Position numbers and translations under genes: made by a program
In this document: piece by piece, positions 20,063 through 55,157 of the stretch
Numbering within the stretch: position 1 is the stretch's first letter
How the letters are laid out: every line of letters starts with the position of its first letter
IMG/VR virus record: IMGVR_UViG_3300009184_000001
Location: 30,441 to 94,440 of that record
Origin: a virus
Length of the DNA stretch: 64,000 bases
Strand: one strand, 5' to 3'
The notes under the pieces: generated by a model
Databases searched by the model: none
Told to the model about the DNA's origin: nothing
The model's input: the letters and a program-made list of their open reading frames with translations, nothing else

Positions 20063-20088
20063 TTTATTCTCCTATCTGTTATTGTTCG

Positions 20089-20159
20089 CTGATTCTGTAG
20101 GAGTCGAACCTACGCTAACGGTGTTGGAGACCGCTGTGCTACCGTAACACTTAGAACCA
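20089..20159 (-). tRNA. tRNA-Trp (CCA), 3' CCA not encoded
   Basis: Acceptor TGGTTCT/AGAATCA, anticodon arm GCGGT-CT CCA AC-ACCGT, T arm GTAGG-TTCGACT-CCTAC. Confidence 0.92.
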
Positions 20160-20229: not shown

Positions 20230-20309
20230 TGGACCAGCACAGAATTGAACTGTGGTCTTACAGAGTCCTACTGGAGGCTTTGTTCTGCAATCGACACCAT
20301 TTCTAGCCC
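20230..20309 (-). ncRNA. Minimal tmRNA-like RNA (tRNA-like domain only, no tag reading frame)
   Basis: GGGCTAG/CTGGTCC acceptor with G3-U70 and discriminator A; stemless D-loop AAATGGTGTCGA; helix TTGCAGA/TCTGTAA; GAC linker; T arm CACAG-TTCAATT-CTGTG. Confidence 0.8.
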
Positions 20310-20383
20310 TTGTGCCAGGATGATTGCCACTAGGCTCACGCGAGAACATACGGTGCTCCTGGCGAACACACGCTCTTGTAATT

Positions 20384-20411
20384 AGTATACACCAAAATTA
20401 CTTGATGTCAA
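20384..20411 (-). promoter_or_regulatory. Sigma70/SigA-type promoter for the RNA cassette
   Basis: TTGACA-16 nt-TATACT. Confidence 0.7.
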
Positions 20412-20931
20412 TTACCTTAGGTTTCTTTTCTTCAGGAAGCTCTTTCTTAAAAGTAATTACTAGTAGTCCATTATCTAGTTCAGCACTTGTTACTACCCAG
20501 TACTCAGCAATAGCAAGAGATAGAGTAAAGTCTCTAGTAGCTATACCTTGATATAGTACTTCTCCTTTAGCCTTACTCTCCTTGTTACCTTGAATAGTAA
20601 TAGTAGAGTCTTTAACAGTAACAGTAATTTCTTTTTTACTAAAACCAGCAACAGCTACATTGAGTAGGTTAGTTTCATCATCCAATTGAACAATGTCGTA
20701 TGGGGGATAGGTTGGTTTATTTGAGGTAATTTCCTTGAGTTGGTCAAGGATAGGTGACCAGCCAATAGATAGACGGTCTAGACGAGGGAATAGGTCAGCA
20801 ATGGTAATAACCTTAGGCTTCTCTGATTGCCACTTCTTATAACTATCTTCGTGGATATTTGGACCCCAGGGAGTATAAGGTGGTTTTTTGTTTTTATCCC
20901 ATGGGTCATTTGAATATGGTTGTATATGCAT
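20398..20931 (-). CDS. Small heat-shock protein (Hsp20/IbpA family)
   Basis: YPPYDI, AVAGF, YQGIATRDF, A.LDNGLL.I, PKVIDI (IxI motif). Confidence 0.92.
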   Translation of the reverse strand: MHIQPYSNDPWDKNKKPPYTPWGPNIHEDSYKKWQSEKPKVITIADLFPRLDRLSIGWSPILDQLKEITSNKPTYPPYDIVQLDDETNLLNVAVAGFSKKEITVTVKDSTITIQGNKESKAKGEVLYQGIATRDFTLSLAIAEYWVVTSAELDNGLLVITFKKELPEEKKPKVIDIK

Positions 20932-28209: not shown

Positions 28210-29544
28210 ATGTACGCAGCTATGATGAAGTGCCAAACTTCTACAGGAGATGTACGCACAGTCGCAGTAGTTCCTACTACTGATGATGTACGTATCTTCT
28301 CACGATTAGGAGAGGGGCGTGGTCGTGCTGGTGCTTGGCTAGAAGGAGATGTACTCATTGAACAAAATGAGTTACTTATTGGAAGCCCAGTATCACTCAA
28401 GACTACTCCGTCAGAAGACAGAGTAATCAACTCTACTATCACACCGTCAATGTTCTTGGTGAAGTTAGGCAAGAAATTGCCTGAAAGCAGCACACCTAGT
28501 TCAACGTCAGCACTAGAAGAGTTTCAATCTCTACTAGAGCAGGCATTGAATGACCCAAGTTCATTGTCTGTATATGAGCAAGCAATTGTTCATACACAAG
28601 CCACACCACAGCCAGTGGTGCAACAGCAGGTAGCAAGCCCGTTGCCTGTTCAACCCGAGATGTCTAAGGAGACACCTATGGAATACTCACAACCCCTACC
28701 AGCATCAAGCAACAGCCACAGTGTATTGCTTGTGCCAGAAATCAAGCCACACTTCACTAGGACATTCGATGAACTAGACGAAGTAACTATCCTTGATTCA
28801 GCACGAGCAAGAAAAAAGACTGTGCTTATCACAGGTCCCGCTGGTACAGGCAAGACTAGTTGTGCTTACAACTATGCCGCAGTCAATCATCTACCATTCG
28901 TAGTTATTGAAGGCACACGACAGATTGACGAGACCAAGGTTCATGGTCGCTTCATTCCTACTGGTGTTGGTAACAGCACTGCTTGGAAGTACAGTCAGTT
29001 CGTTACTGCTATCCAGCAACCGTCAGTAATCCTTATCAACGAGTTGAGTCGTATGCCTGCCAAAGCAGCCGACTTGTTCCTTCGTGTACTCAATGAGCGA
29101 GAACTAATCATTGACCAACTCAATGAGGTTATCAAGGTGCACCCTGAGTGTCTGTTCATTGTAGACCAGAACACAGGTACTGGCTATGCTGTTACAGCAC
29201 AAGACAAGGCATTGCTTGACAGAATGCAACCTAAGATGGAGTTTGATTACGACATCAAGCTTGAGTCTAAGTTCATCAAGTCCGAGTCATTGCTGTTGTT
29301 TGCACAGTCTATTCGTGAAGCAGCGACTATGACTGACCAGTTCACAACACCTATGTCGCCTCGTATCCTGCTTGACTTCGTAGACAATGCTAAGCACCTC
29401 AACTTAGCATTCGCTGTGCGTTCATTGCTCAACAACTTCCCTAAGGATGATGGTGAGCGTGAAGCAGTCAAGATGACTCTAGACTCCAACATTGACGCTA
29501 TTGCGTCAGAGTTGGGTGTAGAACTAGGCAGTTACTCAGCCTAG
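28210..29544 (+). CDS. MoxR/CbbQ/CobS-like AAA+ ATPase
   Basis: GPAGTGKT Walker A, ILINELSR Walker B variant, D.ALLDR arginine finger, SPR. Confidence 0.88.
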   Translation: MYAAMMKCQTSTGDVRTVAVVPTTDDVRIFSRLGEGRGRAGAWLEGDVLIEQNELLIGSPVSLKTTPSEDRVINSTITPSMFLVKLGKKLPESSTPSSTSALEEFQSLLEQALNDPSSLSVYEQAIVHTQATPQPVVQQQVASPLPVQPEMSKETPMEYSQPLPASSNSHSVLLVPEIKPHFTRTFDELDEVTILDSARARKKTVLITGPAGTGKTSCAYNYAAVNHLPFVVIEGTRQIDETKVHGRFIPTGVGNSTAWKYSQFVTAIQQPSVILINELSRMPAKAADLFLRVLNERELIIDQLNEVIKVHPECLFIVDQNTGTGYAVTAQDKALLDRMQPKMEFDYDIKLESKFIKSESLLLFAQSIREAATMTDQFTTPMSPRILLDFVDNAKHLNLAFAVRSLLNNFPKDDGEREAVKMTLDSNIDAIASELGVELGSYSA

Positions 29545-37253: not shown

Positions 37254-37471
37254 TGGATATGGAACAAGCTGGATGCAGGGCGGTTGACCCCGACTTATTC
37301 TTTCCTGAGGGCAAGAACAAAAGAGAGCAAGAGTATAACGCTAAACAAATATGTGCTTCATGCCCTATAATTACAGACTGTTTACAGTTTGCAATAGATA
37401 ATAAACAGGTAGGTATATGGGGTGGAACTACGGATGATGAACGTAGACACCTTAATGTAATTATTAAGTAA
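37253..37471 (+). CDS. whiB: WhiB-family transcription factor
   Basis: C...DPDLFFP...AK.IC..CP....CL.FA......GIWGG....ER. Confidence 0.92.
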   Translation: MDMEQAGCRAVDPDLFFPEGKNKREQEYNAKQICASCPIITDCLQFAIDNKQVGIWGGTTDDERRHLNVIIK

Positions 37472-54815: not shown

Positions 54816-55157
54816 TTACTTTTCCTTTTTATTTAATTGAAAGACATATTCTTTCAAGGTCATACTATCTTTATACTGCCTTTGCCATTTACGCACAAGT
54901 GCATTTCTTTCACGGTGACTTAACCCGCCCCATATTCCATGTTGCTCATCTGATTCTATTGCAGACCACAGACATTCTTTACGAACTGGGCAAGGTGGAA
55001 CTTCCCCGTCTACTCCAAAACAATATCTTTTTGCTGCATCTGCTGTTGGTTTATAAAGAGCTTTATCTCTCGGTGGAAAAAATATATCAGGGTTTGGTAT
55101 ATCTTTGCAAGCAGAATCATTAATCCACTCTAAATCATTTAGATTAAACGTTTGCAT
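54816..55157 (-). CDS. whiB: WhiB-family transcription factor
   Basis: W...AC...PDIFFP...AK.YC...CPV..ECL..A......GIWGGLS.RER. Confidence 0.92.
   Translation of the reverse strand: MQTFNLNDLEWINDSACKDIPNPDIFFPPRDKALYKPTADAAKRYCFGVDGEVPPCPVRKECLWSAIESDEQHGIWGGLSHRERNALVRKWQRQYKDSMTLKEYVFQLNKKEK

Follow-up and report, generated by a model that had tools for sequence, protein, structure and literature searches.

An 80-nt element on the minus strand of a phage genome is very probably a gene for a tmRNA reduced to its tRNA-like domain (a TLD-only, or tag-less, tmRNA), like the one that mycobacteriophage DS6A carries. It lies at positions 20230-20309 of the window, the whole stretch of 64,000 nucleotides that was analysed, which corresponds to bases 30441-94440 of an IMG/VR virus record that is 94,440 bp long and has direct terminal repeats (DTR). 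Trans-translation is near-universal in bacteria and, to our knowledge, little has been established on how phages deal with it. The literature holds one TLD-only tmRNA from one mycobacteriophage, DS6A, which is listed as a 'TLD only' tmRNA carrier (Hudson, Lau and Williams, 2014, PMC4131195) and whose RNA appears in the tmRNA Website as tmID 11587, 'standard, no CDS'; the 2025 tmRNA database contains nine such 'standard, no CDS' sequences (PMC11915505). Among uncultured phages and the prophages of cultured actinobacteria this RNA is frequent, and the family is far larger than the published nine. The kind of element is already described in DS6A and the window gene belongs to the same family; what is new for this window is its correct annotation, the Hsp20-linked module that contains it and a probable freshwater actinobacterial host.

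The 80 letters that a sequence-only reading of this DNA had quoted are present on the minus strand at 20230-20309, where RNA position p equals 20310 minus the window coordinate. The parts of the element are:

20230-20309, minus strand: mini-tmRNA gene (tRNA-like domain only), 80 nt, recognized by fold, covariation and covariance-model match
20303-20309, minus strand: acceptor 5' strand
20291-20302, minus strand: GG...UCGA loop
20284-20290, minus strand: helix 2 5' strand
20278-20283, minus strand: A-rich internal loop
20267-20277, minus strand: capped hairpin
20258-20264, minus strand: helix 2 3' strand
20255-20257, minus strand: GAC linker
20238-20254, minus strand: T arm
20231-20237, minus strand: acceptor 3' strand
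20230, minus strand: discriminator A

The minimum-free-energy (MFE) fold of the 80 nt as a single sequence displays a 7-bp acceptor stem with the G3-U70 pair and a U5-G pair, followed by an unpaired 12-nt stretch that contains GG and ends in UCGA. Helix 2, of 7 bp, begins directly after the UCGA and encloses 19 nt, in agreement with the interior of about 19 nt claimed beforehand; inside it there is a 6-nt A-rich internal loop and then a 3-bp hairpin with a 5-nt loop. The 3' part consists of the GAC linker, a 5-bp T stem with the loop UUCAAUU and the discriminator A. Both the MFE fold and RNAalifold return the helices that had been proposed (7-bp acceptor with G3-U70, 7-bp helix 2, 3-bp capped hairpin and 5-bp T stem). 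The fold energy of the 80 nt alone is not significant (z = -0.92), and being ordinary it leaves the case for an RNA gene to the comparison with relatives. A covariance-model match in the window ends precisely at 20230 and 20309, and the whole phage genome carries one copy of the mini-tmRNA.

Judged by sequence comparison, the element is a real, discrete, conserved and structured 80-nt RNA gene. The sequence-only reading had proposed to look for conservation in relatives and for covariation in the acceptor, helix 2 and T stems, and both are found. Close relatives were located via the upstream Hsp20 protein; in two of them (L002 and L005) the element is 97.5% identical to that of the window, with all three substitutions in loops, while the flanks on both sides are unalignable. 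Conservation among the close relatives extends from G1 to one base past the discriminator. The same slot holds tRNA-Trp alone in two other relatives and the element without a tRNA in another one, so that the element behaves as an independent cassette.

Beyond the close relatives, an interior-blind pattern, with GGG, GG..UCGA, the T loop and UCCA fixed and 25-55 nt free, matched at least 120 viral loci in IMG/VR. Among the matches listed, all eight free pairs, four in the acceptor and four in the T stem, are Watson-Crick or G-U in 115 of 120, and element lengths peak at 78-80 nt. For helix 2 the reading offsets were set by the conserved motifs, and neither an alignment nor a choice by pairing was involved; among the matches listed, this offset-based count finds positions 1-6 paired in 92-98%, against 34-46% when the register is slid, with up to six pair types per position. 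Interiors in the family are mostly of 16-19 nt and the minimum is a tetraloop. More than 170 viral contigs share the architecture, with heavy compensatory covariation in all four helices.

The same picture is obtained from alignments. The 11 sequences nearest the window align without gaps (alignment A4, the subfamily) and are 100% paired, with compensatory changes in 14 of 22 pairs, which none of 500 shuffles equals, and RNAalifold independently recovers the same helices from them. A 102-sequence alignment (A5) is 97.2% paired versus 36-50% with the register slid and has compensatory changes in 20 of 22 pairs, values to be read with the fact that A5 was fitted to a covariance model and leans to structure by construction, unlike the offset-based count. 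Whole-family MAFFT alignments (A2 and A3) misplace gaps in the D loop and helix 2 and were left out of the pair counts. The reading of the element as a small ORF was rejected, given that the overlapping ORFs are only 46-47 aa and that substitutions track base pairing, not codons.

RNAalifold adds three pairs to the A4 structure (columns 15-17/53-55, window 20293-20295/20255-20257), in which the GUC of GUCGA faces the GAC linker. These candidate pairs are unvarying in the subfamily; at the first of them, most members of the wider family have U facing C. The shortest members of the family, of 64-68 nt (L079, L086, L162, L119, L123), have a tetraloop-sized cap directly on helix 2, which implies that the internal loop and hairpin are dispensable in some lineages. 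One of these loci also shows a second, weaker model match (L086:234-308, 28 bits) 10 nt from the main element (L086:160-224), which may be a tandem tRNA-like gene.

Considering that the interior-blind pattern forced G3-U70, the alanine identity was assessed with an acceptor-blind pattern (ATGG..UCGA, 30-55 nt, GAC, T loop) that leaves the acceptor free. Among its 85 unique matches with intact stems, G1-C72 is present in 85/85, G2-C71 in 84/85, G3-U70 in 83/85 and A73 in 85/85. From these counts the alanine identity elements of the family, the recognition set of alanyl-tRNA synthetase, are under strong selection. The base after A73 is C in 78 of the 85, and the full CCA is encoded in only 21, implying that CCA is mostly added post-transcriptionally. 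Where the internal loop is present, its first two A positions are A in 85/86 and 76/85, followed by CC, a motif that the search patterns did not impose. It is absent from the 60 nt at the 5' ends of five actinobacterial tmRNAs, pointing to one common origin of the phage family and to a putative additional contact of the loop.

Standard annotation misses the TLD-only mini-tmRNA, as the sequence-only reading had expected of tRNA and tmRNA scanners: ARAGORN and Rfam at the gathering score make no call on it and report solely the neighbouring tRNA-Trp. A permissive Rfam scan of 601 nt around the element with E up to 10 gave no match at the mini-tmRNA site, which holds for the full tmRNA model (RF00023, without a match at the gathering score as well), for the mitochondrial tmRNA model (RF02544; the gene order here is standard) and for the tRNA model (RF00005). 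When 91 nt were scanned, the sole matches relevant to RNA biology were the permuted-tmRNA models RF01851 (10.6 bits) and RF04321 (10.9 bits), which cover the 3' half of the element, namely GAC, the T arm and the acceptor 3' strand. With the Rfam tmRNA models reaching about 11 bits over the 3' half only, statistical homology to full tmRNA rests on architecture. Among 50,697 isolate phage records BLAST found no match to the 80 nt at E up to 1, and the 701-nt region matched these records via the tRNA-Trp only.

The window element has every feature of a tRNA-like domain standing on its own: the acceptor with G3-U70, A73, GG...UCGA, helix 2a, the linker and the T arm, with a short cap that closes helix 2 and no tag reading frame. 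The tag ORF, resume codon and stop codon are absent, there being 19 nt between the helix 2 strands, and pseudoknots PK1-PK4 are absent too, with no sequence remaining to form them. On the tag frame, the pseudoknots and the Rfam threshold the element fails as a full tmRNA, and it is filed under TLD-only tmRNA. Identity as a tRNA was rejected, since the D region forms no stem and the middle arm, a 7-bp helix, carries an internal loop and is capped by 5 nt, where a tRNA has a 7-nt anticodon loop. At two other loci of the family (L067:2976-3318 and L163:4100-4442) ARAGORN reports a 343-nt 'tmRNA' whose 3' end overlaps an 82-nt mini element, and which could be either a true longer phage tmRNA or a false extension.

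The link to DS6A was obtained with a covariance model (R1) built from the 11 sequences of A4, with no DS6A sequence in it. In the 60.6-kb DS6A genome R1 has a single match of 80 nt at 28478-28557 (63.4 bits, E 1.3e-16), located where the GenBank record leaves the stretch from gp33 to gp34, the gene of DNA polymerase III, without annotation (JN698994.1 28478-28557; L177:1501-1580). We take this site as the published TLD-only RNA, which it fits as the sole match of R1 and by the description given, and not from database coordinates. Both RNAs are 80 nt long, with four helices, G3-U70, A73, GG...UCGA, an A-rich loop, a capped hairpin and a 3-nt linker; besides the tRNA-like frame they have in common the interior AAA loop and the CCGCACGCGG hairpin, and both are phage-borne with actinobacterial hosts (inferred for the window phage). 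They differ in the primary sequence of every stem, by compensatory changes, and in genomic slot, which in DS6A is between gp33 and the DNA polymerase III gene and in the window is after Hsp20 and before tRNA-Trp. The earlier claim of an intact alanine-type tmRNA tRNA-like domain without the mRNA-like domain is thus upheld by the covariation, by identity elements that the search did not impose and by this link of R1 to DS6A.

Full-length tmRNA (ssrA, RF00023) shares with the window element the layout of the tRNA-like domain ends. In five actinobacterial ssrA genes, all of them over the Rfam cut-off, the ends comprise a 7-bp acceptor, an 11-nt loop ending GGUUUCGA, helix 2a directly after UCGA, GAC, the T arm, A73 and C, and the top match of R1 in each of the five loci is the tmRNA 3' end. 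The encoded CCA is alike as well, with usually only C74 present in the phage family and likewise in 4/5 of these ssrA genes. The full-length molecule has a resume codon, a tag frame and pseudoknots, whereas in the window element about 290 nt are replaced by 19 nt. Phage full tmRNAs (the Bxz1 group, Bacillus phage G and marine two-piece forms, e.g. Melnitz; PMC4131195, PMC9004378) are likewise phage-borne and depend on host SmpB, but they retain the tag frame and can tag proteins, which the window element cannot. Organellar CDS-less tmRNAs (jakobid and oomycete mitochondria, RF02544; Mallomonadaceae plastid forms of about 65 bp, PMC11915505) likewise consist of a tRNA-like domain that lacks the tag frame, and SmpB is their presumed partner. 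Their genes are usually circularly permuted, vertically inherited remnants of organelle ssrA; the phage family, unlike them, has its own conserved interior and gives no match to RF02544 at E up to 10.

The element lies between an Hsp20 gene and a tRNA gene, with the following features around it:

20398-20931, minus strand: Hsp20 small heat-shock protein gene (PHROG 432, E 1e-32), immediately upstream
20384-20411, minus strand: promoter-like site TTGACA-16 nt-TATACT, 11/12 consensus positions
20314-20363, minus strand: leader hairpin with a 7-bp outer stem GCCAGGA/TCCTGGC, ending 4 nt before G1
20088-20159, minus strand: tRNA-Trp (anticodon CCA), found by ARAGORN and by RF00005 with 53.7 bits

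The promoter-like site overlaps the last codons and the stop of the Hsp20 gene and would start a transcript approximately 68 nt upstream of the mini-tmRNA G1. A TTGACA/TANNNT pair occurs at the same place in 11 of 13 Hsp20-linked relatives with a different spacer sequence; the -35 hexamer is within coding sequence, and its conservation may partly reflect the protein. A strong hairpin of unrelated sequence, with no U tract, occupies the position 4-7 nt before G1 in eight other loci (L002, L142, L149, L314, L333, L340, L367, L370). The leader hairpin may serve in processing or in RNA stability, or it may be a U-less terminator of Hsp20 transcription. The tRNA-Trp, on the same strand and 70 nt downstream of the mini-tmRNA, is probably co-transcribed with it; the downstream slot in relatives contains tRNA-Asn in three, and the next protein gene follows directly in others. 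In 13 loci whose element sequences are distinct, Hsp20 precedes the element by 51-105 nt. By this recurrent gene order, Hsp20, promoter, leader hairpin, mini-tmRNA and an optional, variable tRNA form a predicted module that is conserved in the phage clade.

The host of this phage is probably a freshwater actinobacterium, as judged from two WhiB genes, the freshwater source and the GC content. WhiB is an actinobacterial and actinophage marker, and in the WhiB search Corynebacterium alone scores among the control genomes. The phage DNA, of 94 kb and about 42% GC, is present in freshwater metagenomes. The two WhiB genes, with 77.6 and 58.4 bits in the order listed, are:

37262-37453, plus strand: WhiB-family transcription factor gene
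54897-55127, minus strand: WhiB-family transcription factor gene

Across the family the gene context is diverse. In a neighbour-gene survey of 178 loci the largest cluster comprises 19 loci and no protein is common to more than about one tenth, so that a dedicated protein partner is lacking in the vicinity; where Hsp20, NlpC/P60 and WhiB recur as neighbours, this is due to the relatedness of the phage clades. An ARAGORN call overlaps the element in only 2 of 115 loci among the matches listed. A pattern scan of bacterial genome contigs gave about half chance matches, as expected for the size of the collection. Mini-tmRNA copies are located in prophage regions of Micromonospora okii TP-A0468 (L215:7517-7594) and Brevibacterium sanguinis JCM 13386 (L220:2755-2832), surrounded by portal, terminase, protease, HNH and head genes. 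Both of these genomes also carry a normal full tmRNA, so that the mini-tmRNA adds to the host system and does not replace it. Together with DS6A, these two prophages are possible experimental systems.

Our best explanation overall, which we consider likely, is that the element is a TLD-only tmRNA gene whose RNA competes with host tmRNA and would end ssrA tagging. The RNA would share with tRNA-Trp a transcript that starts at the element's own promoter, where the Hsp20 gene ends; it would be cut by RNase P at G1, be trimmed at its 3' end and, with C74 alone encoded, receive its CCA afterwards. Charging would fall to the host alanyl-tRNA synthetase, and the RNA would bind host SmpB, plus EF-Tu once charged, in competition with host tmRNA. 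The net effect would be that the nascent chains of stalled ribosomes escape the ssrA degradation tag during infection. An SmpB gene was not found in the phage genome, nor is a full tmRNA called there, the RF00023 scan having passed no candidate through its prefilter; any such activity must therefore use host factors. The mechanism in this form, a charged competitor for host SmpB that suppresses ssrA tagging, appears reasonably probable from our analysis. It has a precedent in E. coli, where tmRNA is strongly inhibited by a similar molecule irrespective of its chargeability, perhaps via SmpB titration, as PMC4131195 and PMC11915505 describe the work of Mao et al. (2009, RNA Biol). SmpB titration is also the first of the possible functions that the sequence-only reading had put forward, next to tag-less chain transfer and a decoy role. 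Because the inhibition in these accounts is independent of charging, pure SmpB titration leaves the retention of G3-U70 unexplained. The conservation of G3-U70 and A73 in 98-100% of the sequences points to a step that needs the aminoacyl end. This step would be delivery to the ribosome, where the RNA might be a blocker of greater effect or a rescuer that adds no tag. That blocking of tagging benefits the phage is a conjecture; for some phages it is reported that trans-translation is required, not blocked.

Tag-less rescue has been proposed for CDS-less mitochondrial and plastid tmRNAs, and its productive form is the main rival here, although we regard it as unlikely. The charged mini-tmRNA with host SmpB would enter stalled ribosomes and accept the nascent chain, after which drop-off and peptidyl-tRNA hydrolase, or an ArfB-type factor, would free the ribosome without tagging; the phage would gain ribosome capacity with no host pathway blocked. 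The presence of G3-U70 and A73 in 83-85 of 85 unimposed sequences suggests that charging is selected for, the acceptor/T stack of 12 bp, a requirement of EF-Tu, is perfect in 115 of 120 loci among the matches listed, and CDS-less organellar tmRNAs co-occur with SmpB (PMC11915505). Against these points, a molecule with neither resume nor stop codon has no known chain-releasing step, and the only experiment cited, in the account given by PMC4131195, shows inhibition of tmRNA, not rescue. We regard as improbable a role outside trans-translation, whether as RNase P or 3'-processing punctuation for the Hsp20/tRNA transcript, as a decoy for defence enzymes that attack acceptor ends or as an alanine donor for aminoacyl-tRNA-dependent transferases. 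Such a role would agree with the occupation of tRNA slots (among the matches listed, a tRNA gene within 500 nt in 23 of 115 loci and within about 13 nt in 13 of them), with the interchangeable adjacent tRNA and with an interior that is variable and shrinks to a tetraloop. A generic decoy or processing signal, however, needs no GG...UCGA, GAC linker, helix 2 or near-invariant G3-U70, features that match real tmRNA ends and not tRNAs, in line with the absence of an RF00005 match at E up to 10.

The sequence-only reading had also named decay from ssrA or an attachment-site remnant as an outcome that would count against it. Among temperate phages, integration into ssrA and carriage of the 3' part of that gene are frequent (mentioned in PMC9004378), and the element could on this basis be a functionless fragment of a host tmRNA gene. 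This scenario is excluded, with a residual probability that we consider negligible: both the 5' and 3' halves are present with perfect pairing, conservation stops sharply at G1 and at A73/C74, all helices co-vary over more than 100 phage sequences, the interior motif is common to DS6A and unseen in the 60 nt at the five tmRNA 5' ends, and a search of this DTR genome for a tyrosine integrase was negative.

Returning to competition with host tmRNA, the selected alanine identity sharpens the question of whether a message-less tmRNA can act on the ribosome. A broader and more tentative proposal is that the mini-tmRNAs are more than sponges for SmpB, namely an old, single-origin phage RNA family whose members must be alanylated and enter stalled ribosomes, with the A-rich loop contacting a specific partner. 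They might then serve as a general countermeasure against ssrA-directed proteolysis or against stalling caused by defence RNases, and in the clade of the window the Hsp20 holdase might handle the untagged truncated chains.

Two further groups of tRNA-like elements were observed in MAGs. In Poribacteria MAGs (L182, L185, L209, L278) the mini-tmRNA frame occurs in variants of 83 nt, whose interior is conserved but differs. A separate 72-nt class is found in Eremiobacterota, Vulcanimicrobiota and Baltobacteraceae MAGs (L188, L190, L197, L207, L213, L216, L225, L234 and approximately 30 more); its acceptor and T stems are perfect, G3-U70 is present, and the stretch UCGA-UGGUG-UCGA might pair into a D stem of 4 bp. 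ARAGORN is mostly silent or inconsistent on this class, which may be an odd tRNA or another tRNA-like RNA.
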